IMG/VR virus record: IMGVR_UViG_3300021399_000104
From: an uncultured virus (IMG/VR IMGVR_UViG_3300021399_000104)
Lineage: Duplodnaviria; Heunggongvirae; Uroviricota; Caudoviricetes
DNA length: 52,136 bases
Strand: one strand, 5' to 3'
The position numbers and the translations under genes are program-made. Below are positions 13,380 to 37,546 of this stretch, one piece after another (the first letter of the stretch is position 1; each line of letters begins with the position of its first letter). Under the pieces are notes generated by a model. The model did no database searches. It saw only the letters and a list, made by a program, of their open reading frames with translations, and was not told the origin of the DNA.

Positions 13380-13968
13380 CATTTCATATAAGGCATTGAA
13401 GAGAAAAAAAATAGGGAAGATTATTCATCACGAACTATCCTCCCTCTAAACAATGATTTATATAAAGTTTCTTGCAGTTAACTCATATATAAGGTATTAA
13501 GGGGGCAAAAAAAAAAAATAAAGGGACTATTCATCTCGAACCATCCCTTCCGTAAATTATAAAAATTCTTTATATAGGAATAAATACTAAATAAATAAGG
13601 GAGGACTATTCATCACGAACCATCATCTCCCTTTAAACTGGTTATAAAAGTAATTTATTGAACTCATATATAAGAAATTGAGTAGTGTTTAAGGAGAGAA
13701 AAAGACGTTTTGGAGAGGATAAAAAAATTAAAGGAGACTATCTTCACAGACGGCCTCACCTTAGAAAAAACAAAAATCCTTATCATATATAAGGCAAAGA
13801 GAAGTGTTTAAGGCGGAAGAAAAAAAATAGGGAAGATTATTCATCACGAACTATCTTTCCCCTTTACGTATGACAAGCTCGGAGGGGTTTGTTTTCCTCC
13901 ATATATAAGGCATAGAAGGGATAAAAAAGTAAGAGAAGGTTATTCATCACGAACGGCCTCCTCTTTAT
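13380..13968 (-). repeat. Tandem array of about five ORF-less promoter-motif/hairpin mini-units
   Basis: Plus-strand CATATATAAG at about 13483, 13664, 13783, 13899 (variant at about 13570) alternating with TATTCATCACGAAC-type hairpins preceded by A-runs. Confidence 0.8.
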
Positions 13969-13970
13969 CT

Positions 13971-14402
13971 TTACAATTCAATTTCGTAGGATGTAAACTC
14001 TTCCATTTTCCCAGTCTTTTTTGATTTAGCTTTAAAGGTTCGTTTATTTATTTTAACGAGTAGTGGGAAGCAAGTAGGGTCTGTTTCCTCGAGTGCTTGG
14101 ATTGATTTATTTATGCGTTTAGATGAAGAGAACATTTTATAGGTATTGCCAGTTTTGAGTTCCACTTCATCGGGGTCTTCTTCCCATTCATCGACTACAT
14201 CTTGGTCTACTTCATCTATTATCAGCAGCATTCTTTCCGCTCCGAATTTAGTTGGTATTCCTTTTATAAATCTTTTAATGATTATATATTGTCCAACCAT
14301 ATCTTCAAGTGAGACGGATTCATAGTCGAAGAATTGGTGAGTAGTTTCTTTTAGTTTCTTTTGTAGGTCTTTTCTTTGTTTGAGTGAAGTTATTTTTTCC
14401 AT
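13971..14402 (-). CDS. Hypothetical protein, last gene of the RT operon
   Basis: Coupled to 14402-14800; followed by a terminator hairpin at about 13930-13965. Confidence 0.7.
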   Translation of the reverse strand: MEKITSLKQRKDLQKKLKETTHQFFDYESVSLEDMVGQYIIIKRFIKGIPTKFGAERMLLIIDEVDQDVVDEWEEDPDEVELKTGNTYKMFSSSKRINKSIQALEETDPTCFPLLVKINKRTFKAKSKKTGKMEEFTSYEIEL

Positions 14403-14800
14403 TATTCTAGTTCTTCCTCTGGTTGTTCCGGATCTGCTTCAGTGCTTGGGTCCCATATACCTGCTTCTGTTGCCCATTGTCTAGCATCTTTAGCCATTTG
14501 TTTTGATTCATCTCTATACTCTTGCATTTCAGTAAAGGCCTGGATATAGTCAGGGTTATCTTTATCTTTGAGTATATTATTGATGATAGCTTCCATTTGG
14601 TCTTCACTATATTTGATACGTATGATTTGTGAAGTGAGGAAGCCATAGTCCATCGATCCCAGTGGTGTTACAATTTCGTCCCATTGCCAGCTTTGATCAG
14701 ATCCAGTAATATTGACATTGACCCGGTAGTATTTTCTCATTTTTTCCACTCCCCAGGTTACGAAGTCTGGTTTTGTTGTTCCAGTTTTGTGTGTTGCCAT
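14402..14800 (-). CDS. Hypothetical protein downstream of and overlapping the RT
   Basis: ORF overlaps the RT 3' end; YS.D.MEAIINN...EMQEYR pattern recalls Bacteroidetes phage tail-associated hypotheticals. Confidence 0.7.
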   Translation of the reverse strand: MATHKTGTTKPDFVTWGVEKMRKYYRVNVNITGSDQSWQWDEIVTPLGSMDYGFLTSQIIRIKYSEDQMEAIINNILKDKDNPDYIQAFTEMQEYRDESKQMAKDARQWATEAGIWDPSTEADPEQPEEELE

Positions 14801-16161
14801 AAGATATACTTCTTTAGATTATACTTATCCTTTATCAGGATTTTCTTATAGTCGTCTACCACCATACAGACGAAGTGCAGATAAGGGTATTTAGCTTTTT
14901 CAAACACTTTAGTTCTGATATTATAGGTAGCCGATTGTTTAAGTAGTCCGAGATAGGAGTTAATAGCCAGTACATATCGTCCCAAGAGTTTAAGTTCGGG
15001 TAGGATATTTCTCTGGTATCTTCTTCTTTTATTCATCTCGTTATAAATTTTCATACAGACTTGATTAGCGGCGTAGACATTATTATAAAGTCCTCCGATA
15101 GTTCGATTGCCTGTATATTGTCTTGAAGGTTTTATTACGTGTCCTAGTATTTTAATTCCTTTTCTAACTTCTTGGATATAGACTTTATCAGGGTGTAGTG
15201 TTATGCCAAGTTTTCTAGGTAACCATTCTCTAACTTCTCTGATTACTTTTTTTAGATTAGATCTTCTTGGCATAGTTATCACGAAGTCATCCATATATCG
15301 TCTATAGTATCCTCCTCCATTTCTTTTTATGAGAGTTTGTATAAAATCATCCATCACTGACAGATAGAAATTTACTAAGACAGAGTTAAGATAATCACCC
15401 ACCGACAATCCTTTTCCCGGTTCCTCTTGATTTAGGAAAGATCGACCTGGCTTTAGAACATTCCATCTAATTTTTCCCGTCCGATATATAAAATTTTCAG
15501 TCGGGTAATGATCGATGAATAGTTCGAGGAGCCAGAGTATCGTATCTTTATCATCCTTAGTGTAATAGGTTCGGATAAAGGCGATTATTAATTTTTTCAG
15601 TTTTTCTCGAGGTATAGACATGAAGCAATTAGAGATATCAAACTTACCAACCCATGCTTCTTTTGTATAATTCTCTGAGGTAACAATAATATCTGACTTT
15701 ATATCCCTTAACGCTTTGTCTGTTCCTCCTTTAGTTTTCTTCCTTTCGCAATATGATACATCTCCCTGTAATGTATATCGTTCTTCTAAGAGTGGTTTTA
15801 TTTTCTTAACTAACCAATGCTGAACTACCCTATCTCTAAACTCAGGGACAAAGACTTCTCTAGGTTTGGGCCATTCCATTATAAAAGCTTGATATTGACC
15901 CTGTGTATATGTCCTCTGGTAAACTTCATTGGCTAGTCGGAGAAGGTCAAAATCTACCATACCCCTATACATTGCACACTCCTTCTTACTCTCCTTCCTA
16001 ACACAACATAACCGATAAGCTCTAAACCATGACCTAATTTGACGTGGATCTTTAATTATATCGGAGGAGGCGGTTTTAGGATGATAAAGTGGTGGAGAAA
16101 TAGAAGGGAATGGTTTAACCGGAGGAGACACGAAAGGATTTTTATGGTAATCGTATGTCAT
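14758..16161 (-). CDS. Reverse transcriptase, DGR-type
   Basis: PREVFVPEFRDRVVQH (region 2), KFDISNCFMSI (region 3), GLSVGDYLNS..VNFYL (region 4), RYMDDF catalytic motif, LHPDK..Q...GIKILG, INSYLG; no maturase or endonuclease extension; adjacent Avd-like gene. Confidence 0.92.
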   Translation of the reverse strand: MTYDYHKNPFVSPPVKPFPSISPPLYHPKTASSDIIKDPRQIRSWFRAYRLCCVRKESKKECAMYRGMVDFDLLRLANEVYQRTYTQGQYQAFIMEWPKPREVFVPEFRDRVVQHWLVKKIKPLLEERYTLQGDVSYCERKKTKGGTDKALRDIKSDIIVTSENYTKEAWVGKFDISNCFMSIPREKLKKLIIAFIRTYYTKDDKDTILWLLELFIDHYPTENFIYRTGKIRWNVLKPGRSFLNQEEPGKGLSVGDYLNSVLVNFYLSVMDDFIQTLIKRNGGGYYRRYMDDFVITMPRRSNLKKVIREVREWLPRKLGITLHPDKVYIQEVRKGIKILGHVIKPSRQYTGNRTIGGLYNNVYAANQVCMKIYNEMNKRRRYQRNILPELKLLGRYVLAINSYLGLLKQSATYNIRTKVFEKAKYPYLHFVCMVVDDYKKILIKDKYNLKKYILWQHTKLEQQNQTS

Positions 16162-16169
16162 AATAAATC

Positions 16170-17039
16170 GAATGTGTTTGTTTTAAAAAGGGGATGAGGG
16201 AAAACATCTCAAACCAGTGTCGTTCTCACCTATTTTCACGACATTTTCCCCTTGAACGATCCCCTACCACTAATAAAATGTAGAGCGGGTTATCTTAGTG
16301 GCCAAATAACCTTCTCATAAATTTCGTCCCGCCAATATGTTAAGCCCCTAGTGAAAATCTTAACAAGGCTTGGGAAATAAGTATCATCACGACAGTTATT
16401 CCTGGGACTTAATTCGTTCTTTATGTACCAGTAAGAGTAGATAAGAATAGAAGAAGAGCATGAAAGGTCTAAATCCATTCCTACCTACTCCTACCCTGCA
16501 ATGTAATACTATCTGTTCTTTAATTAAACCCTCTCTCCGATACCAACTCTATACTTTACGATAATTACTTACCAAGACCACAAAGGGCGAAGAGTGGGAG
16601 AAGACTTAATAACAGACAAAGGAGAGATCCGATACATATAACCCCTCACAATATTACGTCTTAACTAAATACCTCATCATTGGCAACCGATAGATATCTA
16701 GTGGTACATCAATTTGTCTTAAAGATTAAAATGCATTCCTGTAACCTTAATCACATTCATAACATCGTTCATAAGTATTTTCCCTAATGAAACAATCTTT
16801 AACTTAATTCTTACTATAATCTTTAAGCTCGGTATCGCGACCAGATACCTTAATGGAGCATAAGAAAGATTAAGTTTTTGGGCATCTTTCATAAGGTGTG
16901 AGCCGAAAATTATCATGAGCTAGAGGAATAAACGCCTTGGGCCACGAAATAATGCGAATTCTGCCATTCCTAACCGTAAACATGAATCAAATCACATTCC
17001 ATAATAACTACAACACACACTATGTATTCCTGTTATTAA
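16170..17039 (-). ncRNA. Candidate structured spacer RNA between the last cassette and the RT
   Basis: No credible ORF; nested inverted repeats at 16189-16265, 16827-16859 and 16864-16890; position matches the TR-RT spacer of DGRs. Confidence 0.4.
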
Positions 17040-17826
17040 GGAACGAACCGGCCGTGCATAGTGAAGAGCATCACCAGCGTAGTAACCAGATTGCCAAATT
17101 CCAGCAGCTGAGCTAAAACGCACCACCAAGCTATATGGAGTGAGCTGTTGCGTACTAGTCCAAAAGAAAGGCAATTCACTAGGGAAGAGGGAACGAACAT
17201 ATTTCGATCGTCTACCTTCAAGACCCTGGAAGGGACCTATCTCAATCCCAACTCCCATAACATATGATTGATTATATGTCGTTGAAGAAATATGCGAGGT
17301 ATTACTCGATCCTCCACTAGGGAAGAAGTCATTTAAGGAACTGGCACTCTAATGTTAAGGAACGAATAAGCAGTCTAGTATCATAGAAAGCACCACCAGT
17401 CACACTACCAGCGACCCATAACCCACCACCCCTCGTAAAAAGGAACACCCAAACATGAGTGGAAACGGTTTGCGTAGTAGTCGAAAGGTAATCGTATCTA
17501 CTAGGGAAGATGGTGAAAGGAATTAGCACTTTGATGTTAAGGAACGAATATAACACTTGACCCAAGCTGGATTATGCATCTCTTCACCAGGATAATATAA
17601 CTCTGTAGGTGTACTAAGGCGAATAGCAACAGCCCAAGTTCCAACGCTAGTAGTACTGTATAGGTAAATATATGTACCACTAGGGAAAGCACAAACGGAA
17701 CGAATATATGCATTCTGGTGCTTGTGCCATAAGTGATACTGACCAAGATAGAGATTAGTAGACTGGTTAAGCGCAATCTGCCGTGACTCGAGCCTCGTCA
17801 CTTCCATAGAGCTACCAATTTCTCCA

Positions 17827-18279
17827 CTAGGGCTCCTCATGATATTCTTCTTTAATAACATCGGATTTAGTCTTATTAATCCATCTCTCTAGCTGTACAT
17901 CAATCTCTCCAAAGTCCTTAAGATAATCTGCATATTGAGAAGGCGTCAGAAGGTGAACTTTTTGCTTATTTGTCTTACTCCATTCAAATAAAATCCGAAT
18001 AATAGAAGAAACAAAGCATAAGTGTCCCTTTATTGATATTAGGCAGTCTAATCTTTCTTTAATGTTTTGTGTAGAATAGGCTAATTGAGAACCCACCAGA
18101 CAATCAAGTAACTCATCTGTCAATCTCGCTAGGTATTTCTCAATCATCGGTATCTTAGGAGAGTTTTCAGTCACCTTAAGAAAGAATAGAGAGATGTTTT
18201 CTAGTTTTCGTGTGATGGAAGGTGTATGTGGCTTCTGTAAGTGCCTCCCATTATTGTTTACTTTATTATTATTTTCCAT
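17827..18279 (-). CDS. avd: Avd-like accessory protein (four-helix bundle)
   Basis: 150 aa, helical; PK...LA, IIRILF...LLTPSQY...FGEIDVQLERW resembles the Avd LRL...S..QY...EIG..LGGW pattern; upstream of the RT. Confidence 0.75.
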   Translation of the reverse strand: MENNNKVNNNGRHLQKPHTPSITRKLENISLFFLKVTENSPKIPMIEKYLARLTDELLDCLVGSQLAYSTQNIKERLDCLISIKGHLCFVSSIIRILFEWSKTNKQKVHLLTPSQYADYLKDFGEIDVQLERWINKTKSDVIKEEYHEEP

Positions 18280-18303
18280 TTTGATATAAATAATTGTAAC
18301 CCT

Positions 18304-18349
18304 TTTAGTAGATAGCCAGAGAGTTTAATTTCTCCAACTATCTACTAAA
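18304..18349. promoter_or_regulatory. Inverted repeat upstream of avd
   Basis: TTTAGTAGATAG (18304-18315) / CTATCTACTAAA (18338-18349). Confidence 0.55.
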
Positions 18350-21300
18350 TTCAAAAAGTCTTGTCGTACCTTAATATTCCTTTAACTTAAAAGGAACGAA
18401 TGAGCTCTCCCATGTAAACCCAGGTCCAGTACAACCTACCTGCGTCCCATACAGAATGACCTGCTGTAAAAGCCTCACCCAAACTAGATCCATTCATACC
18501 CTGCGTACTAGTCCACCAGTATCCACCACTAGGGCATATGGAACGAACCCAACGTAAAACAAAATATTGACCCAAGCGCAGACATCCAGATTGACTAACT
18601 TGAAATGCACAACTTAAGATATCCCATTGAGTTTGAGGTGTAGCAGAGGCGTGTCCAATACTAGGGAAGATGGAACGAATAGCTTCATTGTCCCAAAAGT
18701 CCTGGGAACTCAAACGGCCTGTATGCTCTTTCCCCTGAGAAAATCCCATTGTACGTGACAAAGGATAAAGAGAATTAGTAGACGCCCAATGATATATCCA
18801 GTGTTCACTAGGGAAAACGGAACGAATATAAAAACTGCTGCGAGGATATCCAGTCCATAAGAGACCGACACTAAAAAATGCCATATGAGGACTATTACTA
18901 CACCAATGGGCACCCTGACTGGCTACACTAGGAACGAATAATCTGAGTTTCCCAAAAAGTACGCCCCGCCATCATTCCAGCAACGATTACAGTATTATAT
19001 GAGTGAAATTCCATGAGTAACGCATTAACTAAGTTCTGTTGTGTACTAGAGTGAACCAATTGTATTGCACTAGGAACGAACTGTAGATAAATTGTCAGAC
19101 TTAGGAAAACCACCAATGCTACCTGGATACTGGCTAATATGTTTGCCTTTCACAAAGTAAGCTACTTGCGGTGTAAGATAACTAAGAGACGTAGTTGACC
19201 AATGAACACCGTACTTTTCAACAATCCAAGCACTAGGGAAGAAGAGAAATGGAACGAACAAAGCGATCGGACGGATTGAGTGGATATATAGTAGCTCCTG
19301 GGTCGCTAATGGCCTGTCCCTCTACCCATCTATGATAAAACACTACAGTCCATTGAGCCCGAACAGCGTAAGGTGTAGAAGAAGTATGTCCATTAACACT
19401 AGGAAAGCACGGAGGGAACGAACTGAGTAATAAGTAAACGCCTGCGAGTTAACTAAGCTGCCAGGATATTGTAGAATCAGATGGCCCTTCATAAAGAAAA
19501 TTAGCCGTGGATAATTAGCAATATGAGGCACAGCTGACCAATGAGCACCCACGTTATCACCTACCCAACCACTAGGAACGAACAGAGTAAACATGTCCGA
19601 CAACATCAGAAGCCCACCTACCAGCGAGATAGATACCTTCAGATGACAGAAAACGTACAATTGAACTCTGACTGGCATCGCGGGTCATACTAGTCCAACC
19701 TACACTAGGGAAGAAGATCCATCTAGTTCATTGTATAAAGAAAATGTCTCATGAAGATGACAAAAACATCGTAATTCCCTGTCTTTTTCTAACATTTTGA
19801 CATACTTTTGAACGAACTCCTCTAGAACCTTCTGGGATTGGCGTATGTGCACTACCCGGATATTCGTTGTATTTAAGCTGACGAGACCTAAAGTTAACTG
19901 CTCGAGCACCAAAACCATTAGCATCTGTAATAGACCAGTGAATAGTAGAACTATCACTAGGGGAACGAATAATGTGTTTATCCTGTCCACTTGCAACTGT
20001 CAGCCTACCAGATATCCAAATTCCAGCATCTAATGAGAAAGGCACTGCCCAACTATAAGAACTACCTCCCGCACTCGTACTCGTCCTGGTATATCCTCCA
20101 CTAGGTAAGGTATAGAACGAATGGGTAAAGAATATGAGAGGTGGAGGAGTAATCCTGCAGAATATCCTGGAAGCTCCTGATTATTATTTCCAGTACCAAA
20201 CATAGTCCATCGTGAATAACTTCCATGTTCAGCAGCAGTCGTAGAAGACCAATGCAAGGTTTGACTAGCGGCTTGGACTCCACTAGGGAACGAACATATC
20301 GACGGGCATAGACAGAGACATCAGTAGCAAAACCAGAACCCAAATCTCCAGCACCTAAAAACAAACGCATCACCCAACTAAACCATCCACCCGCTTGCGT
20401 ACTTGTCCAATAGGCTAATCCACTAGGGGATATAAACGGAACGAATATACCAACCTATGTGAAATGGACTATAACTACATTCACCATTTCTTTGAATCAT
20501 TCCCAAGCCTGCTCTTCTAGCATAAACGCTACTATGTTGTGTACTAGACCAAAACCAGCGATCTCCACTAGGGAAATACAACAGGAACGAAAAGGATGTG
20601 AAGCAGAAACAGAATCTCTATAAATCATGCCGTTACCTTTATATACCTCAGCAAGAGTAGATGGTAGAAAGGATACTGCAATATTAGCATAGTAATAAGT
20701 CGAACAATAGATATGCAGCCCTTTGGCACTAGGGAAATATGGAACGAACTGAGTGACTTGAAAAATATTGAAATAAGCCTACAAGACCGGTTCTATCTGA
20801 ATTTCCTTCCCACCAAATTCCTAATGCATAAGTAAGCGAATACATTGTAGTAGACACGAACCTTACCCATCCACCACAAGGGAAGAGGGAACGAATGCCT
20901 CGAGTACCTCCGGATGATGCAAACTGCACACCTGGATATTCATTGTATGGCAAATTTATCGCTCTGAAATTACAAGATCGAGGAGAGTTACTGTTACCTT
21001 CAGTAGCAGAATAATGGATAGAAGGTAAGCCACTAGGGGAACGAATATAAAGAGTTGCACTTAAGTTAGCTGCCGAAGTCGTCACACCAGAAATCCATTT
21101 ATCTGAACCTCCCCAAGCAAATAACATCACTAAAACACTAGGTTCGTATGCCCGCTGTGTACTACCCCAAAGATATGCACTAGGGAATATAAACGGAACG
21201 AATATTGCGTATATAAATGTGGCTTTGATGTGCAACTTCTCCCACAAAATAAGTGGACGATCCTGTAAATCGTACCTGCCAAGAAGACATAGTAATGCAC

Positions 21301-24300
21301 TCTGTAGAAGAGAAATGCTTCTCACCAGCAGATATTCCACTAGAAAATAAGACTAACGGAACGAATAGATGTACTGTCTGGATCAAGATACTTTGCCCTA
21401 ATGTTATGACCTCCGGGATATTGGCCAACTTGAGGGTTTCTCCGACTAAACCAAAAGGCAATTAGTTGGCCGTCAGTACACTCAGTTGTTGACGACTGAG
21501 GAAGAGTCTGCCAAGTACTAGGGAAGGAGGAACGAATAGTAACAGAGTCAAAATATCTTGCGCTTGAGCTAATAGATCCATAATAATGCCCCGGTTGGTC
21601 AGCGTAACCAAACCAGCAGAGACGGACGCGGAGGTCATTTTCTCCTGTTGCTGACCATTGCCTAGTACGCATACTGTATCCACTAGGAAAAGCACAAACG
21701 GAACGAACTGAGAATTCGTGAAATATTCTGGCTGAAGAGCAAATACCAAATGATAATAGTGGATCTGATGCATATCCTACTACTATGCGTAAAGCGTAAT
21801 TGCTCGAGGTCTGAGAACCGGACCAAACTCCACTAGGGAACGAATAGAATTTGCATGATATTTGTTTCTACGTTCATTGAATCCCCCCGGACAATAATAT
21901 ATCATTTTCATGCCGTGTGATATTCCCCCAGGATGCTTGGGAAGTGGCCTCTGTTGATGACCAAGAACGATCATAGTTAGAGGCAACTCCACTAGGGAAT
22001 ACAAACGGAACGAATATATGCATTCGCGCGTGGGTCGTCTTTTTGCCGAGCGGTTAACGCACCGTAATATTGCTCAATAATGTCTCCCTGAGTAATCCAA
22101 ACGCGACGTGCACCCCCTAGGCCGATTTCCGTTGTAGACCACAAACAATGTTTTCCACTAGGAAAAGCACAAACGGAACGAACTTCATGAGTCACGTTAG
22201 TTAAATCCTGTATAATGTAACCAGAAATATGCAGAGCACTACTATATTTACTGAAATTCACCATTCTGGCACCAGTTCCTATGTGACCTGTAGCACACCA
22301 ATAGTTTTGCCAACTTATTGCACTAGGAAACGAAGATTATGAGATGAACTAGTACTATTGAAGTAATTAGTGAAGTTACCTGCGCCTAATCCTTGACCAA
22401 AAACAAATGCAAAAGGAACATAGCTTAGGCTCCAATTTCCTATCATATATAGACTGCTATGCCAATGATATACAGCTCCTCCACTAGGGAACGGAACGAA
22501 ACTAGAAGGTAACACAGGGCCTAACTCTATATTCGAGGCAGGCATGAGGATAAGTATCTCTCGACCCGTCACGCCAGCACCATGCGTATTTCCAAGTACC
22601 ATTTCTCGGTAAAACACATGTAGAGGCCCAATGTTGACCGGCCAAACCTTGTTCCCATGTTCCTCCTACACTAGGAATAATGGAACGAATAGAGTGCGTA
22701 TTAGCAGCATCTTGGCGATGTACATAGCCGGGTTGCCACTCACCTGTGTTATGACTGCCTCCCACACGTATTGTAAAGAGGAGATAACTAACTAAAAAAT
22801 CAACAGACGTCCAGTGATAAGGCGTTCCACTAGTCAGGAACGAATAGAATAGCCTGGGTAGTATTTTGATGCAGCAATTTGTACATGTCCAGGATATTCG
22901 GTTTTTAATGTAGCCCGTCCAAATCATTGAACATAAAAGGCATTCGAATGGTGCTCTGTAGTACAAGATTCCGTAGCGAGATATGATTGTCCACTAGGAA
23001 AGCACTAATAGAACGAATAAGATAATAATCTGTCCCGTTTCGTCGTGCGATAAACCCTGAATAGTTATGATCCTGGATGTTCGAACCATAAAATGCAAGA
23101 TGTAAATGAACTTGACCGGTGCACTCTGCAGAAGAGGTATGCGACGCCCCACTAGGGAACGAATAATACTTCTTTTAGAAACGTGTCGGCCGATGAATAA
23201 GCCCCGATATTGATCCGAAGTATAGTATATAGTTGTAGATAATTCCCAGGCACGTTGAGAAGTTGACCAGTGAATTGTGTACTCTCCTTGTCCTCCACTA
23301 GGAAAAGTGGAACGAACAGTTACAGCGTTTAATTCGTTGAGGAGACGGCTGCGTACATATCCAGGATATTGTAAGGCTGTACCAGCATAGCCAAACCATA
23401 CAACAAAATATTGATTCCAACTGATCTGCGTAGAACAAGATTCTGTTGCTCGATCCCAATTTCCACTAGTCAGGAACGAATAGAAAAGGCTGCATTTGCC
23501 TCTTTATGCGCTACCTGAGTAAACCTCCCCGGTGTCTGAACTACGACAGAACCATAAAAATTAAATATAGCCCAAATATACAGATGATTATCTTCAGTAC
23601 TACCTAAAAAGTAAGGACCTGGAAAACCACTAGGGACGGAACGAATAGAGTTTCCAAAATGTTTGCTTCTACGTTGAATATATCCCCAAGATAATATTGC
23701 ATCATCATCGGGCCTTGCCACAATCGCATGGAAGCTTATCAGACCGGCCTCTGTAGACGACTGAGCAAGTGCAAAGTATATGTGAGTTCCACTATGGATC
23801 AAGCGGAACGAATTGTAACATTACCGAATTTGTATGGAATGCCATTTAAATTGCCTTCGCGCCATGACCATTGACGTGCATAATACGCATTTATCTCAGT
23901 AGCAGACCAGTAAAAGTATACCATATGTCTTACACTAGGAACGAATAAAGTTTCCGAAGTGTTTGTTTCTACGCTCATTGAATCCCGAATACAGTGTTAC
24001 TGAATCACCGTGTCGTATGATATTCGCCCAGAAGGTTAGGTAATTGGCTTCTGTAGATGAATGAGTAAGAGTATAGTTATTGACCGCTCCACTAGAAAAT
24101 ACTACTAATGGAACGAACAAGGTAAACATGTCCGACAACATCAGCAGCCCATCTGCCTGCAATATATATGTCATTACCCGATACAAAACGGACAATAGAA
24201 CTAAGGTGAGGATTCCAACCCGTACTGGACCAATGGCTATTTGACCCACTAGAGGATAATGGAACGGATAGGCAAGGTCCAAGGCCATTAGAATTTTAAA

Positions 24301-25297
24301 AATATCCGACCAACCCAATCGAGTCCTCCATTATACTCGAATCCAACTGCACAAGCTTCGATAGTAGACCATAACCGAATGTTTCCACTAGGGAACGAAT
24401 CCAATGCTGAATATCATGAACCTTACTTGATGTCGTCCAGTAACCATATGATGATAGAGGAACGGACCCATATCCTACCATTATCATGCTAAACGCTGCC
24501 GATCCTGCCTCAGTAACGGAGACAACTCTAGCAAAGTTCTGAGCCTGTCCACTATGGAAGATGGTGACGATCAATCACGACATTACCGGTATAGCACATA
24601 CCTGTATCCCATATACCTGCTCCCTGCGAAAGTATCACCTCCCAACTACGAGTAGAACCGAACTGTAGGCTTGTCCAAAAGTATGCACTAGGGAACGAAT
24701 AGAATGTGGATCTGATACTATTCTTCCAGACAACACTCCCGGGGAACTGCTTAAGTCAAACGCCAGCATAAAACAATAAGGAGCAAAGAAAATAGTGCTG
24801 ACCCAAGACCAAGACGAATATCCACTAGAGAACATAAACGGAACGAACCAAACGTAGATTAAAAAAGTATTTACTAGTTGGAGTGTAGAAACCATATGAT
24901 TCTTCTGGAAAAGACCCATATCCTACCATTATCATCCAATAGCTACGATCCGCCGCTTCTGTAGCAGACATCGCCCTAGCATGGTTCTGATCTCCACTAG
25001 GACATACGGAACGAATGTGGTGAATATTATCATGAACACCAGCACCTGCCCATCTACCGGAACCCCATACCTCATGCCAGGGTGCAAACTGTACCACCAC
25101 ACCTTGAGTATATAGGGACGGCATACTACTCCAAAGGTATCCACTAGGGAACGAATATTATGCGAATCTGATGCTACTCGTTCAGATATACCTCCTTGAT
25201 TAGCAAAGGGAGAAAACACTAGTCTAATACGATAGTGACTATGATATTCAGTACTGCTCCAGAAAATATACAAGTATCCACTAGTGGGGTATATTTG

Positions 25298-25363
25298 TGG
25301 AATATCAGGAATCGAACCTGAACTTAAGAATACATCTTCGTGCTACCATTACACCATATTCCT
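25298..25363 (-). tRNA. tRNA-like element with shortened anticodon arm (pseudo-tRNA) inside the cassette array
   Basis: Minus strand AGGAATA-TG-GTGT AATGGTA GCAC-G-AAGATGTATTCTT-AAGT-TCAGG TTCGATT CCTGA-TATTCCA: canonical D and T arms, 6-bp acceptor pairing, anticodon arm 13 nt instead of 17. Confidence 0.7.
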
Positions 25364-26312
25364 AGAGATTTATTAGATCTCTATATCAATTAAGCAAGGG
25401 AACTCAAACCGCCTGTCTTTAAAGCCAGTCGGGTTCCCTTGAAAGAAGTCGTCGAGATGATCAAACATCTCTCCTCAAGAAACGTCGGTCCTAATCGTCC
25501 CTCCTTAAGGAGTGCTTAGAAAGCACAAACGGAACGAATAATGTGACTATCATTCCAGAAATTACCAGCAGTACAGTATCCAGCAGCCCTAGAATCACCC
25601 GCCGTAAAATGCGTTACCCAACTATGAGTAGGTAAGTGTTGCATACCTGTCCAAAGATATCGTCCTGATCCACTAGAAGAACGAATAAGACGGAAAGCAG
25701 AATTGTGTTGTTGTGCTGTAGCTCCTGGACTAAGAGTGAGAGTGTCAGAAGCGGACGCCTTATAAAACGCTACATACCAACGAGTCTGTCCCGCCCACTG
25801 TGTAGAAGAATCCTGCGATAAACCACTAGGGATGGAACGAATATAGCGCCGAGTATCATAAGCTTTGAGTCCATAATCAGCCAATCCCCAATCACGTATA
25901 TTGTCACTTTGTGTTGATATCACAAAGTAGAGTTGATGATAACACTCTGTAGATGACCGAACAAGAGCTGACATAGAGGTATCTCCACTAGGGAAGACGA
26001 ACGAATATAACGATTTACATAATGATATGAATGAGCCATGCTACCGGTTGGTGCTGAATCTTTCCCAAATTTAAAACCAATTGAGATCAGAAGCAGAGAT
26101 ACTTCTACAGCAGCTATATGAATTCCTGATCCACCACTAGGGAACGAATAGAATTATATCCTACACATCTTGATTCCACAGAGATTAAAAGACCAGTTGA
26201 GTAGGTGGAGGATATATAACCAAATAATAACGCCAAATCATGAAGAATATCACGTTGCGTAGAAGAATGGGATGCATCATCGTACCAAACCGCTCCACTA
26301 GGGAAGATAAAG

Positions 26313-26354
26313 AAAAATAAGAAGAGGCAGGGTTATTACTCTCTACCTCCTCTT
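26313..26354 (-). terminator. Intrinsic terminator between the Ig-like gene and the array
   Basis: Minus strand AAGAGGAGGTAGAGAG...CCTGCCTCTTCTT followed by ATTTTT. Confidence 0.65.
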
Positions 26355-26369
26355 ACAATATATAAACTT

Positions 26370-28007
26370 TTAGACAGGCATAACTTCAAACACGCCCTCT
26401 TCTACCTCAACAGACTTATATCCATCAGCAACAAAGCTAACTGGACCACCGACCTCACTCATTGAATTAGCTGGGTCGAAGCCATAATACTTTCCGCCAT
26501 AGACAGTAATATTAGCAGTTCCAGCCGTATAAGAGGAATCATAGCAGTTAAGGAGATATTTCTTTTCCTCTCCTGTCAGTTTAAACTCACCCCCGTAAAT
26601 ATTAATCTGGCCATTTTCACAGTAAATAGCGTGAGTACTAGCCGTCCATTTACCACCCATTACATTCACTACACTACTCTTATTAGATAGCCATAGACCA
26701 TAGTAATCAGAGTTAGTATATTCGCCCGTTCCTTTAATGGTTAGGTTAAGTGCAGAGCCACGTACAAAGAACATACCATTTTTCGCTCCACTAAACTCTA
26801 TATTATGTTCTCCTAGGTTCCATTCATAGTTACCTGAAGCGAAAAGGCCAAAAGTAAGTGTGGCAGTTGCATTAATATTAGCGTCAAGGTTAGTTATGCC
26901 GGGTTGTAGAGCATAAGATTTAAATTGACTCCAAGTACTAGCGTTCATTATATTAGGTGAAACTGTGTACTCTGTGTCATTTACTACCTCATCAATTCTA
27001 TTCTCAACTTTAGTATCCTTCACAACTACATTGCCCTTCTTGACAATAAGCTTCTTAATGTGTGCTGCCGGACCAACATTGAGGGTATTATCTCCAACAG
27101 TGCTTTCAACTACGTTCCAAGATGAATTAAGTGTTACTGTTGAATTAGGTGTATTGATATTTAGAGAAGGCTCATTAGTATTCCCATTTGATATAGTAAC
27201 ATTCTTATTGGTTTCACTATTAACGTTACTAGACTCTGAGAAAACACCATTAACCGTTACATTCTTTCCGACTTCGCCATTAATATTAATGTCACTAACT
27301 TCTCCCTCACTAACTTTAATAGATGTGTTTGTGTTGACGTTGTTATATAGGCCTGTCAAATACACCGTAGAAACACTGGGAGCATCAACAGTGAGATTAG
27401 AAGGTGAAGTTGAGGTGTTATTTACATACACTAATTTACTACCACTTGCTTCAACCGTTGCATCACTAGATAATGGTGCCGTGATTTTACTAGTCTTTGT
27501 TACACTAGAGGGGATAGAAATTGTACCTACTTCACCTTCTGTTATGACGACTTCTCCACCACCTTTTTCTGTTAGCTCATTTACGATAGTCTCTTCATTC
27601 TCTTCTTTCTGAGCTTCATTACCATTTTCACAGACGGTAATATCTAGGGTTGCAATAATTCCAGATGTAGAAGTAGCAGTGATGGTGGCTTGTCCTATGT
27701 TTTTACCAACTAAGAGACCATCATTTTGTACTTCTAGAATTGAACTATCCGAACTCTCCCAGATTACCTCCGGAACATTAGCAATAACAGGGCTAGGAGT
27801 GATGGTTAGGCGGGACTCTTCATTAATAGATAGGTAATGTTTTCCTGATAAAGTAATTTCGACAGCGGCATGTTCATCGCCATCATAAATTTCTTGATCT
27901 GACTTAAACTCTACACTATCTTTAATCGCCTTTTGTTGTGGAATAGAATGATAGCCGGAAGTTACATAGATTGAATCAACGCCGTTATCAAAGTATTCAG
28001 CTGACAT
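26370..28007 (-). CDS. Ig-like (Big_2-type) domain protein with a C-terminal beta-helix-like region; probable virion or surface protein
   Basis: V.WESSD.SI.EV..DG.LVG...GQATITAT Big_2 signature; repeated 'INIYGGEF/ITVYGGKY' beta-strand motifs. Confidence 0.75.
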   Translation of the reverse strand: MSAEYFDNGVDSIYVTSGYHSIPQQKAIKDSVEFKSDQEIYDGDEHAAVEITLSGKHYLSINEESRLTITPSPVIANVPEVIWESSDSSILEVQNDGLLVGKNIGQATITATSTSGIIATLDITVCENGNEAQKEENEETIVNELTEKGGGEVVITEGEVGTISIPSSVTKTSKITAPLSSDATVEASGSKLVYVNNTSTSPSNLTVDAPSVSTVYLTGLYNNVNTNTSIKVSEGEVSDININGEVGKNVTVNGVFSESSNVNSETNKNVTISNGNTNEPSLNINTPNSTVTLNSSWNVVESTVGDNTLNVGPAAHIKKLIVKKGNVVVKDTKVENRIDEVVNDTEYTVSPNIMNASTWSQFKSYALQPGITNLDANINATATLTFGLFASGNYEWNLGEHNIEFSGAKNGMFFVRGSALNLTIKGTGEYTNSDYYGLWLSNKSSVVNVMGGKWTASTHAIYCENGQINIYGGEFKLTGEEKKYLLNCYDSSYTAGTANITVYGGKYYGFDPANSMSEVGGPVSFVADGYKSVEVEEGVFEVMPV

Positions 28008-28009
28008 AA

Positions 28010-28423
28010 TTATTCTCCTTCCTTACCGTCTGGGACATTAACACCATCCGTTACAGTAAATAAAATAGTCGACGAAACCTCTGTATTATAAGCATCAGTA
28101 ACAGTAACAGTAGCATCACCAACACCAACTGCGATAAGAGAAGCCTGTCCATTTGCTTTAATTACATTCTCATCTGACGACTCAATAATAACTTCGGGGA
28201 CATTTGCATAGGCAGGAGTAGGAACAATAACAAGTTTAACTACTTCTCCAACAAACAACTCCTTTCTGGAAGCACTAATTTCGAATGACTCTTCTTTATG
28301 TGATTCACCATCATAGACTTCCTGATCAGATACTTCAAATTCCTCAGTTGGTGATATAATCTTCCAGACCTTGTAATTATAGTCTCCATCAACAAACAGA
28401 GGAATGATCTTAACTTCTTCCAT
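28010..28423 (-). CDS. Ig-like (Big_2-type) domain protein, paralogue of the N-terminus of 26370-28007
   Basis: SDQEVYDGE.H, P.PA.ANVPEVI.ESSD, GDATVTVT shared with the neighbour. Confidence 0.75.
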   Translation of the reverse strand: MEEVKIIPLFVDGDYNYKVWKIISPTEEFEVSDQEVYDGESHKEESFEISASRKELFVGEVVKLVIVPTPAYANVPEVIIESSDENVIKANGQASLIAVGVGDATVTVTDAYNTEVSSTILFTVTDGVNVPDGKEGE

Positions 28424-28690
28424 AGTTTATTCAAAATTAAAAAAGATTAATGCTAGAAAATCATCTCATTTCTAACATTTTAATTTTACTCCATCATTTA
28501 TAAGAAATCAAGTACCATCCTAAGCGCGTTTTGTTTATTTCGAAAGAAGAAAAAAAATGAGGGGACTATCTATCACAGACTGTCCCTCTCCCATGGTTAA
28601 ATTGATTAAATCTAGAAACAATTTTTGCAAATCATCCATATATAAGGAAAAGAAAGGAGACTAGACTTTTACATCTAATCTCTTTATCCT

Positions 28691-35938: not shown

Positions 35939-37546
35939 TTAGAATGTACCGCCGTCGATTACATCAATAGTGCAAGTGAGGGCAAGAGATTGTACGTTGC
36001 TAGCATCAGTCTGCTTAGTAACAGTAACACCATAGACATTGTTAGTGCCTGTGAAATTCTCAGTACCAGAAACGACCTTATTCTCAAGGAAATTAGCCTC
36101 TGCATCAGCGCTACTTACACGAACCTTACCGGGGAGCTCAGTGAATTCAACGTTGAGTTGAGTCTTAGTAGTAGCATCAAACTCAGCGCCTGATACACAA
36201 TAAACCTTACCAGCCTCAGGAGTAAATGCATTACCGTTCTCATCAACCTCATTAGTAGTGAAGTCAGTAGTAGTAACGGTAGCAACGTGGCCATATGTAT
36301 CAACAGTAACACCAGTAACAACAGAGTTATTACCAATTGTTGGGCTAGCTGTGCTGTGCTTGATAATTACATTGCTGCTGAGTGCGCCAGTCGAGTTAGA
36401 GGAATCCAGCTCCAGACCATTCGTAGCAGTGACAGTACGATCATCAAATACTACATTATTAATGTTCTTAGTACTATCCTTGATAACCTTACCAGTAGCA
36501 CCATCGAAAACAGCAATATTACCATTTACAGAAGAAGCAGGACCAGTAACGGCACCATCAATATTGTTCTGAACAACCGACCATACAGGATCAGTAGAAT
36601 CTGTAGCCGAAGTAGAACAGATGATCATATCACCTACCTCTACATTCTCAGTACCAGCAGCGGTAGTCAACTGGAATGCAGCGGAAGCACGATAAGTCCA
36701 ACCAGCAACAGGCAGAGGATCATCAGTGTGATCTGGGAGGTCAGAAGCAGCAGCTACAGTGCCCTTAAACTGCATGGCCTGAGCAACTACGAGAGCGTCA
36801 TCTACATAGTTCTTAACGTAACCAGTAGAAGCAACATTAGTTCTGTTAGCGTTCTCAGAGCCAAGAGCAACTGTCGGAGTAGTAGGAGTGCCAAGGAGAG
36901 CTGCATCTGTACCATTGAAGTTTACAGTTACAGACTTATTTGCACCCTCAGTAGGAGAAGCAACAGCAGTCAGGTCAATGTTAGTACCGCCTACGAATTC
37001 GAGAGTATCATTAACACCGTTAGCTGCAATAGTGGTACCACCAACTACAATGTTCTTATAGGTATTTTCTACGTCAATAATGTGACGAAGAGCAGCGGCA
37101 TCAAGAGCTACTACATCAGCATTTCCAGAAGTACCATCCTCTGCGACACCAAGAACATGACCCTTAGCAATCTGAGCCAGACGATCGAGAGCTACCTGAT
37201 TCTTATTGATAGAAGCTTCGCCATTGGTAAATGAGATCTGAGTGCTAGATTTTGCATGACCATATACATCAGCTCCTGCCTTGGTCTCAATATGCTGACC
37301 TACAAGCTCAACCAACTCCTGAAGATCGGCATCAGTAGCAAGAATTTCATAAGAGCTAGCGCCTGTAGCAGCAGCCTTACCTACACCAAGAATAAGACGA
37401 TTAACAGTAGCATCACCAACAGTCTTCTGATAGATAGCAACAACTGGCTGACCTACTACATGGGTAATACCATTAAGAGCGGTAATCGCGGCGTCATAAG
37501 AAGCATAGGTACTGGCACCACGAAGAAATTTAATAGTCTGTTTCAT
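35939..37546 (-). CDS. Tail-fibre-like structural protein
   Basis: MQFKGTV, EVGDMII, WSVVQNNIDGAVTGP, FDGATGKVIKDS, VDTYGHV motifs; ends IDGGTF. Confidence 0.7.
   Translation of the reverse strand: MKQTIKFLRGASTYASYDAAITALNGITHVVGQPVVAIYQKTVGDATVNRLILGVGKAAATGASSYEILATDADLQELVELVGQHIETKAGADVYGHAKSSTQISFTNGEASINKNQVALDRLAQIAKGHVLGVAEDGTSGNADVVALDAAALRHIIDVENTYKNIVVGGTTIAANGVNDTLEFVGGTNIDLTAVASPTEGANKSVTVNFNGTDAALLGTPTTPTVALGSENANRTNVASTGYVKNYVDDALVVAQAMQFKGTVAAASDLPDHTDDPLPVAGWTYRASAAFQLTTAAGTENVEVGDMIICSTSATDSTDPVWSVVQNNIDGAVTGPASSVNGNIAVFDGATGKVIKDSTKNINNVVFDDRTVTATNGLELDSSNSTGALSSNVIIKHSTASPTIGNNSVVTGVTVDTYGHVATVTTTDFTTNEVDENGNAFTPEAGKVYCVSGAEFDATTKTQLNVEFTELPGKVRVSSADAEANFLENKVVSGTENFTGTNNVYGVTVTKQTDASNVQSLALTCTIDVIDGGTF

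Follow-up and report, generated by a model that had tools for sequence, protein, structure and literature searches.

Diversity-generating retroelements (DGRs) diversify one short region of a protein through adenine mutagenesis of one template, and antigenic variation in bacteria and protozoa is known to draw on libraries of cassettes. A canonical phage DGR has one long target gene with one variable region (VR), one N-rich template repeat (TR) beside the reverse transcriptase (RT), and adenine-specific differences. Here we analyse IMG/VR virus record IMGVR_UViG_3300021399_000104, an uncultured member of the Caudoviricetes, whose 52,136 nucleotides (52 kb, hereafter the window) carry a DGR-type RT and an array of 54 VR-sized cassettes. 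The locus resembles canonical phage DGRs in the type of its RT, in a homologous gene at the position of the accessory gene avd, in the order of elements along one strand and in Lcl_C-type VRs that end V/I-R-x-V-x-A-F. It differs from them in that the window contains no target, no TR/VR pair and no adenine bias, and has 54 cassettes (49 + 5), a spacer of 879 nt and the residues NS in place of an RT motif SQ.

Three other kinds of system invite comparison. Neisseria pilS is a silent-cassette gene-conversion system; like it and Borrelia vls, the array is a contiguous set of promoterless partial copies with short conserved bounds and variable, readable bodies. Unlike both, it is phage-borne, lies beside RT and Avd, mixes reading frames over linkers of 0–13 nt and has no expression site found in the window. 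CRISPR arrays, the model of polarised acquisition, share with it the regular array beside a conserved, leader-like non-coding region, the variation between close strains and a hint of a conserved far end, but here the variable parts are protein-coding and mutually homologous, the ‘repeats’ are 7–10 nt long and can overlap, and no Cas-like genes were seen. Alternative C-terminal tips of binding proteins are also stored side by side in the Gin/Cin systems of Mu and P1 and in the R64 shufflon, which use few cassettes in both orientations and a site-specific invertase; all 54 cassettes of our array run in the same direction (besides one inverted mini-cassette) and no invertase was recognised. Identity among vls cassettes is given as ~90% (PMC11499132), compared with ~25% amino-acid identity among the cassettes here. 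A full-text literature search, at the level of listings and abstracts, returned no paper on an array of VR cassettes beside a DGR; the largest arrangement mentioned in the passages of PMC5758913 consulted is eight tandem target genes, with no array of VR fragments.

Anatomy and coding content of the cassette array

The array occupies positions 17040–26302 on the minus strand. Of its 54 cassettes (98–183 nt), 53 have both anchors, CCTAGTG at the start and TTCGTTCC at the end, and one (24692) has a degenerate, unrecognisable end anchor. The junction pattern CACTAG-N(0–25)-GAACGAA has 41 matches against 0.02 expected, all between 17177 and 26148, on a single strand and nowhere else in the window; in a looser parse that allows one mismatch per anchor, start and end anchors alternate strictly. 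The operon runs in the order cassettes, avd, cassettes, conserved structured RNA region, RT, with 49 cassettes on the target-gene side of the avd-like gene and five on its template side. The array had originally been taken to start at 18387, which is wrong: past a 561-nt gap that holds the avd-like gene, five more units reach 17040 and add 1.3 kb. These five RT-proximal cassettes (17040–17831, minus strand) occupy the place of the template repeat in canonical relatives, include two long linkers (35 and 37 nt) and have a right flank that begins TTAA, not GTTTGTG. The five RT-distal cassettes (25531–26302, minus strand) begin directly after the terminator-like hairpin of an upstream gene for an immunoglobulin-like (Ig) domain protein. 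A promoter scan is no different from shuffles (50 against 45.7), and a terminator scan is likewise indistinguishable from them.

Between cassettes, linkers measure −2 to 13 nt in 46 junctions, beside the two long ones; four larger gaps, of 66, 99, 245 and 561 nt, hold non-cassette DNA, the 245-nt gap including a tRNA-like element and the 561-nt gap the avd-like gene. Linker lengths are even across frames (17/15/16 of 48, modulo 3). The linkers are fragments of GTTTGTGCTTTC, which reads VCAF, and of ATCTTC, which reads IF. The original prediction, made from the letters of the sequence, was that junctions are truncated ends of a target gene, and the linkers bear it out much better than segments taken by chance would: the 30 linkers of 3–13 nt, compared with a prefix of GTTTGTGCTTTC plus a suffix of ATCTTC, have a summed edit distance of 50 over 247 nt, against 123 ± 5.7 for array segments of the same length drawn at random (minimum 104 in 1000 draws). 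All 11 junctions it described as collapsed are present, as TTCGTTCCCTAGTG at 26141, 25148, 24692, 24392, 23156, 21837 and 20287 and as TTCGTTCCTAGTG at 23938, 19575, 19073 and 18931; a near-variant at 22327 and three 0-nt linkers are further junctions of the collapsed type. The three GTTTGTGCTTT junctions said to retain VCAF are equally real. The longer sequence TTCGTTCCGTTTGTGCTTT is exact at 17686–17704, 21689–21707, 22164–22182 and 25520–25538, recurs with 3 mismatches at three more junctions and is absent from the rest of the window. The cassette array and its junction grammar are confirmed as genuine, far beyond chance.

The longest right flank (25286–25530, minus strand) reads GTTTGTGCTTTCTAA, with the unit ending at 25516 as IIRSVCAF-stop, in keeping with the IRSVCAF-stop first reported for it. 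Two hairpins, read by eye (GTGCTT/AAGCAC and CTCCTTAAGGAG), follow, and then a tRNA-like element (25297–25363, minus strand; Rfam RF00005, 43.4 bits) whose anticodon stem has 4 bp and whose loop has 5 nt; ARAGORN makes no call there. The 99-nt non-cassette insert (19710–19808, minus strand) has an end anchor directly on one side and a start anchor directly on the other.

Read from CCT AGT G.., the cassettes encode PSG...(Y)W(S/T)ST...F...G...(I/V)RS. Targets of the RT relatives examined with their genomic context end ...RWTSTQ..AW..SSSA...VVLPVFAC-stop or ...YWSASE...LVRPVAAFRL-stop, and in hhalign a cassette profile matches 20 canonical targets at their C-termini (87%, E 4e-6, over just 23 columns). 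Against 1.84 billion representative proteins the profile has 24 matches at E ≤ 1e-3: 10 are ORFs (open reading frames) identical to the window, three are unrelated repeat proteins, two are lectin-like and nine are array ORFs that lie on other contigs (P0002, P0003, P0007, P0012–P0015, P0022 and P0024, with the grammar IRS-[VCAF/IYAF/F/LL]-PSG). P0021 is a Pfam Lcl_C protein (PF07603, E 2.5e-25), matched at residues 152–193 in the C-terminal half of its domain (114–196), and P0020 contains ...PSGDYYWTSTE...SVRPV. Because the profile finds the C-termini of DGR targets, the C-terminal half of the P0021 domain and P0020, a cassette is identified as the half of an Lcl_C/DUF1566 lectin-like domain that is C-terminal and variable; it spans as much as a DGR template/variable repeat and corresponds to the part mutated by related DGRs. 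In a Pfam search, 0 of 48 single cassettes match PF07603 on their own; the cassettes are fragments of this domain and do not count as members by themselves. A sequence profile search of the PDB gave 0 matches, and 173 long proteins that share words with a 152-aa array ORF were tried as candidates, none reaching E ≤ 10. As for the idea that the flanks are ends of a target gene, the resemblance part stands (canonical targets end YLVRPVAAFRL-stop or VVLPVFAC-stop, the Lcl_C protein found with the cassette profile ends ...YVRAVRAF, and a stop and hairpin-like sequence follow the 25516 unit), while the gene itself is missing from the 52 kb.

The cassettes are kept readable. Among the 53 units with both anchors, 51 have a length that is a multiple of 3 (binomial P 3e-22) and 48 are also stop-free, the other five being broken by a stop or frame shift. 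Stop-free units number 49, 11 and 0 of 53 in sense frames 0, 1 and 2, and 4, 0 and 1 in the antisense frames. As paralogues the cassettes are old: the nine most similar in-frame pairs (at least 62% identity) have dS of 0.53–1.08 and dN/dS of 0.35–0.97. Given open frames at such dS, it would take either selection or a very recent origin from an expressed gene to keep cassettes of this age open.

The two anchors, roughly 10 nt each, are (T)TC-CCTAGTGG and (T)ATTCGTTCC, and their codons are conserved at synonymous sites. In the 48 intact units, which this test covers, the Arg codon at the anchor is CGT in 48 (against 26% inside cassettes), the last Ser codon is TCC in 42 (against 6%) and the Ser2 codon is AGT in 47 (against 25%). 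Units are defined by the anchors themselves, a bias that is small because they tile the array almost without remainder. Since synonymous sites are conserved, the anchors matter as DNA or RNA, and the cassette body as coding sequence. Within the array a block of three cassettes is duplicated (25284–24840 and 24828–24392, 60% identity).

Reverse transcriptase, accessory gene and conserved spacer

The RT (467 aa; 14758–16161, minus strand) is of the DGR type (phrog_1423, E 3.9e-51; PF00078), with YMDD present. Its relatives are 32–42% identical (loci L060–L087, with Bacteroides phage DGRs among the tblastn matches), those with context 32–37%. The nearest RTs adjoin canonical TR/VR pairs or have an N-rich template stretch in their own ORF; three listed relatives carry PF07603 in their own ORF. 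Ahead of the RT, 9 of 10 aligned relatives have the N-rich stretch (WSSTENNSNN.WNVNF..NNNNKYN.N.VRP), and the window and its 95% relative have none. Purifying selection acts on the intact RT (dN/dS 0.17 against L068, a 96.6% identical contig). The motif [I/L/V]GxxxSQ is a hallmark of DGR RTs; residues ~254–260 read VGDYLNS in the window and in P0032 (95%, the only close relative), against IGNxxSQ in all 10 aligned relatives. Beyond P0032 the next relatives are at 42% or below, which places the RT on a long branch.

The gene in the position of avd (150 aa; 17827–18279, minus strand) lies within the array’s 561-nt ‘linker’ and ends with a stop codon supplied by the TAG of the start anchor that follows. 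BLASTP relates it (E 4e-7) to the gene between VR and TR of L060, and hhalign aligns it with nine accessory genes in the Avd position at 97.5% (E 5.6e-12, 120 columns). It has no Pfam or NCBIfam match of its own; among the nine comparison genes, one matches Pfam PF05635, weakly (E 0.056).

The last cassette and the RT gene are separated by a conserved, structured non-coding spacer (879 nt; 16162–17039, minus strand), with no ORF of at least 100 aa. It folds better than shuffles (z −2.85 over 911 nt, −3.53 over 359 nt). In contigs from two independent studies it is well conserved: those labelled X8 are 97.6% identical over the spacer and 91–95% over seven flanking pieces, and those labelled X5 have 5 differing letters in 822 nt. 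Contigs from RNA libraries of two studies also fall on it (X4, 16072–17104, at the highest bin depth; X6, 16330–16689), which is at most a hint of transcription as such contigs are unstranded and may hold DNA. Rfam gave sub-threshold chance matches only, and GenBank phages match neither the spacer nor the 245-nt flank. Among eight loci of RT relatives in viral contigs, no 8-mer was enriched.

Inside the spacer is an inverted, out-of-frame ‘mini-cassette’ (16347–16419, plus strand) whose two anchors, correctly ordered, lie 59 nt from each other on the strand opposite to the array. It is the sole window match to CCTAGTG-N(50–80)-TTCGTTC, with 0.01 expected. As RNA of the RT strand, the mini-cassette would be complementary to both anchors. 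The extended linkers share just TTAA(C/T)A with the spacer start, too little to make a case for insertion there.

Array differences between related phages

Content and order of the array are not fixed, so the refuting case named with the original prediction does not arise: related phages keep the flanks and continue into unlike cassettes, and in near-identical phages one and the same cassette is followed by any of three different neighbours. Cassettes 25992–25531 recur at 91–100% protein identity in five cluster members. After this trio, the window and P0028 have VCAF-stop (...IRSVCAF) plus the 245-nt flank. The flank is missing from P0029, P0030, P0031 and P0002, which read ...IRSLVV...; in P0029 (a 330,285-base contig) a zero linker leads into a cassette read as LVV and then the ORF end, and in P0002, P0030 and P0031 a zero linker leads into a homologue of cassette 25148. 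P0030 combines the window type with the P0002 type in a mosaic, and P0003 has a different upstream neighbour and linker. In P0007 and P0027 one cassette is identical to the window and the next differs at 9–10 of 55 residues.

The X5 and X8 contigs match the RT and spacer as far as 17047; over avd they match to 18401, starting at 17826 in X5 and at 18036 in X8. At the anchor positions 17047, 17826 and 18401 they end or continue into unlike sequence, and 47 of 60 X5 records and 25 of 43 X8 records fit only in part. In X5, an independent run, one contig retains the five RT-distal cassettes (25547–26600, with 20 differing letters and 8 gaps). In X5 the distal five units and the spacer are therefore kept and the proximal units are unlike, in contigs of one close relative and a single run. 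Absent contig cover proves nothing, and we use neither the uncovered array parts in X4, X5, X6 and X8 nor contig joints with short sides (20–48 nt, mostly anchor plus linker) as evidence. Near-identical phages differ by whole units, and the breakpoints are at anchors.

Searching public collections for the same array by its DNA pattern yielded single, chance-level matches only (59 loci and at least 120 loci in viral contigs; 3 in genome contigs). The RNA-library contigs X4 and X6 both cover 21811–22239 and 22695–23067, segments centred on long VCAF-type linkers and on cassettes with a stop or frame shift; this may be chance or DNA carry-over.

Function, genomic setting and meaning of the array

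Anatomy, coding constraint, DNA-level anchors, homology to DGR VRs, an intact RT and avd, and unit-level strain differences are established, as is the lack of a TR/VR pair in the window. In a scan of both strands of the window against the array with A as a wildcard, the best hit, with 5 non-A mismatches in 60, is a paralogue pair. The spacer does not supply a template either, since its A-wildcard comparison with the array is no better than shuffles (13 against 11–14). Cassettes were originally proposed to be VR-derived copies; they are not adenine-mutagenised copies of one VR, since the best pairs are 60–78% identical and contain indels, and the 25 pairs listed show no A bias. Taking the A-richest cassette (24096, with 7 AAY codons) as template fared no better, as its mismatches to relatives are not A-biased (19 of 51). 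Nor did the target come to light that was expected from an ORF ending in an RSVCAF-like context: the 52 kb hold no target or template repeat, and a full-length target with a 3′ variable region is found neither in the window nor among the 24 profile matches.

Our preferred reading, plausible though somewhat short of an even bet, is that the array is a selected library of silent cassettes, probably copied through RT and Avd into an expression copy elsewhere. The cassettes would be silent donors of variable tips to a binding domain of the Lcl_C/DUF1566 (C-type-lectin-like) type, held inside a DGR-derived operon. They would be transcribed and copied by RT/Avd, with the anchors as short homologies that position the copy, and one whole cassette would replace the variable region of an expressed receptor-binding gene beyond the 52-kb window. 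About 54 ready-made tips could in this way be used instead of, or before, adenine mutagenesis. Recombination at anchors would add, delete and reshuffle units between related phages, and the intercassette DNA would be leftover target-gene flank (VCAF-stop, IF), trimmed to the point that the anchors overlap in 11 junctions. A silent-donor library is the simplest account because the cassettes are readable, frame-independent and bounded by anchors. We infer the expression site, the copying step and the dependence of copying on the RT; RT-mediated copying is favoured because the library surrounds avd and RT, both are maintained without a classical template, and the cassettes are template-sized.

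Several observations weigh against this reading. No expression site was found, and the anchors occur nowhere else in the window. The W-x-[LIVM]-P motif of the N-terminal half of the domain is absent from every frame of the window, which also has no homology to five canonical targets (best E 0.085). Among the proteins listed by the search of 1.84 billion, none is a long phage protein that ends in a cassette, though array ORFs of the 330,285-base contig were included. No cassette has its own RT-binding spacer, and an RT that normally starts beside one template would face 54. The anchors are just ~10 nt long, 5 of 53 units carry a stop or frame shift, and the changed SQ motif could equally mean that classical activity has been lost. 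A case for transcription could draw only on RNA-library contigs that are unstranded, with DNA content possible.

The same library might be worked by DNA recombination independent of the RT, as gene conversion or microhomology exchange at the anchors in the manner of bacterial antigenic variation, with RT and Avd a mere neighbour or relic. Rearrangements with anchor breakpoints do exist between near-identical phages, the three-cassette block has been duplicated, and the canonical template and SQ motif are missing, all of which such exchange would accommodate. We nonetheless hold it unlikely. The avd gene lies within the array, with the RT immediately after the array; the two genes share a strand and are intact, and the RT is under purifying selection; the cassettes span the DGR template/variable repeat; about 10 nt is short for homologous recombination; and no recombinase was recognised adjoining the array.

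The linkers bear on the account given in the original prediction, of an archive in which copies of the target 3′ end (IF-PSG-VR-IRS-VCAF-stop) are acquired and joined at microhomology as records of past variable regions. Their make-up, truncated right plus left target flanks, is what acquisition would leave, and one unit retains the stop and downstream hairpin-like sequence. Polarity is hinted at by the longest linkers (35 and 37 nt), which are at the RT-proximal end, and by X5, the closest independent relative, which keeps the RT-distal five while its cassettes beside avd and spacer are unlike; content also varies among strains. However, the differences between cassettes affect every position as well as length, instead of falling at template adenines, so the cassettes cannot be successive products of one template. 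Present data fit gain or loss alike, and the polarity is drawn from the contigs of one run. Growth by acquisition at microhomology is possible so far as the truncated flanks go, but the shared TTCC/CC is equally explained by microhomology deletion inside a longer linker, and deletion between TTCC repeats would yield the same collapsed junctions. We regard an archive of this kind as doubtful.

To be doubted in the same degree is a functionless by-product, that is, concatenated cDNA or aberrant retrohoming (template jumping, or target-primed insertion beside the VR) around a decaying DGR. End-to-end template jumping with variable truncation and junction microhomology is established for other RTs, and would be expected to leave just such junctions. 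Neither target nor template was found in the window, and the five broken units of 53 also suit decay. Yet at dS of 0.5–1.1, neutral pieces of ~48 codons should mostly have gained stops or frame shifts, yet 48 of 53 have neither. Synonymous sites in the anchors are conserved, the RT and avd genes are both intact, and several other contigs show the same architecture.

A DGR-derived RT might have been repurposed to both write and read a genomic archive of whole binding-tip cassettes, adding units beside the conserved leader-like RNA region and retrieving old ones into the receptor-binding gene; this is a long shot, and if true would give the phage a heritable, CRISPR-like memory of host-range solutions. 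A single long multi-domain gene, decayed or read with frameshifts or another genetic code, is scarcely credible: the full 12-nt linker is in frame (IRS-VCAF-PSG) and runs of 2–4 cassettes form ORFs of 100–203 aa, but start-to-start spacing and linker lengths are even over the three frames, statistics that rule out a giant ORF and, because frames are mixed, a rescue by any change of code, while each unit is only the C-terminal half of a domain and deletions halt exactly at anchors.

The apparent source of the window is a large tailed (gut) phage, with tail-fibre-like genes, pairs of MoxR and VWA genes and many small ORFs; the best phage match of one of its ATPases is to a Bacteroides phage (48%). 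Array ORFs identical or near-identical to those of the window (P0026, P0029) are situated on the 330,285-base contig, so the phage is probably a jumbo phage, and the window amounts to less than one-sixth of that contig. The gene upstream of the array encodes a 545-aa structural protein with an Ig-like domain (26370–28007, minus strand; Big_2, phrog_215). It has no lectin-like C terminus and is not joined to the array, a stop and hairpin preceding the first cassette. The 15-kb block of RT, array and Ig gene is flanked by a 46-nt repeat family, composed of an A-run and a hairpin whose conserved loop is TATTCATCACGAAC, with five copies at 13402–13966 and one at 28547–28592. X5 and X8 contigs join 13390 to 28663; their short sides of just 24 and 41 nt are insufficient for a block-less strain. 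Two pairs of a MoxR/CbbQ-type AAA ATPase and a VWA-domain protein lie on the minus strand (31635–32828/29413–31629 and 47472–49052/45041–47503), and the middle of the 820-aa VWA protein is a long low-complexity stretch rich in Q, G and S. A tail-fibre-like gene (535 aa; 35939–37546, minus strand) is low in A (0.24) and has 58% T at third codon positions, unlike its neighbours. For the 644-aa neighbour gene the sole lead is ‘helicase’ (Atlas).

A phage with ~54 deeply diverged, selected VR cassettes in a template-less DGR operon would unite the two ideas of adenine mutagenesis from one template and of a cassette library. It would point to a new activity for a DGR-type RT, in a system that is directly testable because arrays vary between near-identical phages in public gut metagenomes. 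The array suggests a so far undescribed route by which a phage may swap whole binding tips, and would reveal a second, coarse-grained layer of host-range variation, in which whole tips rather than single positions are changed.

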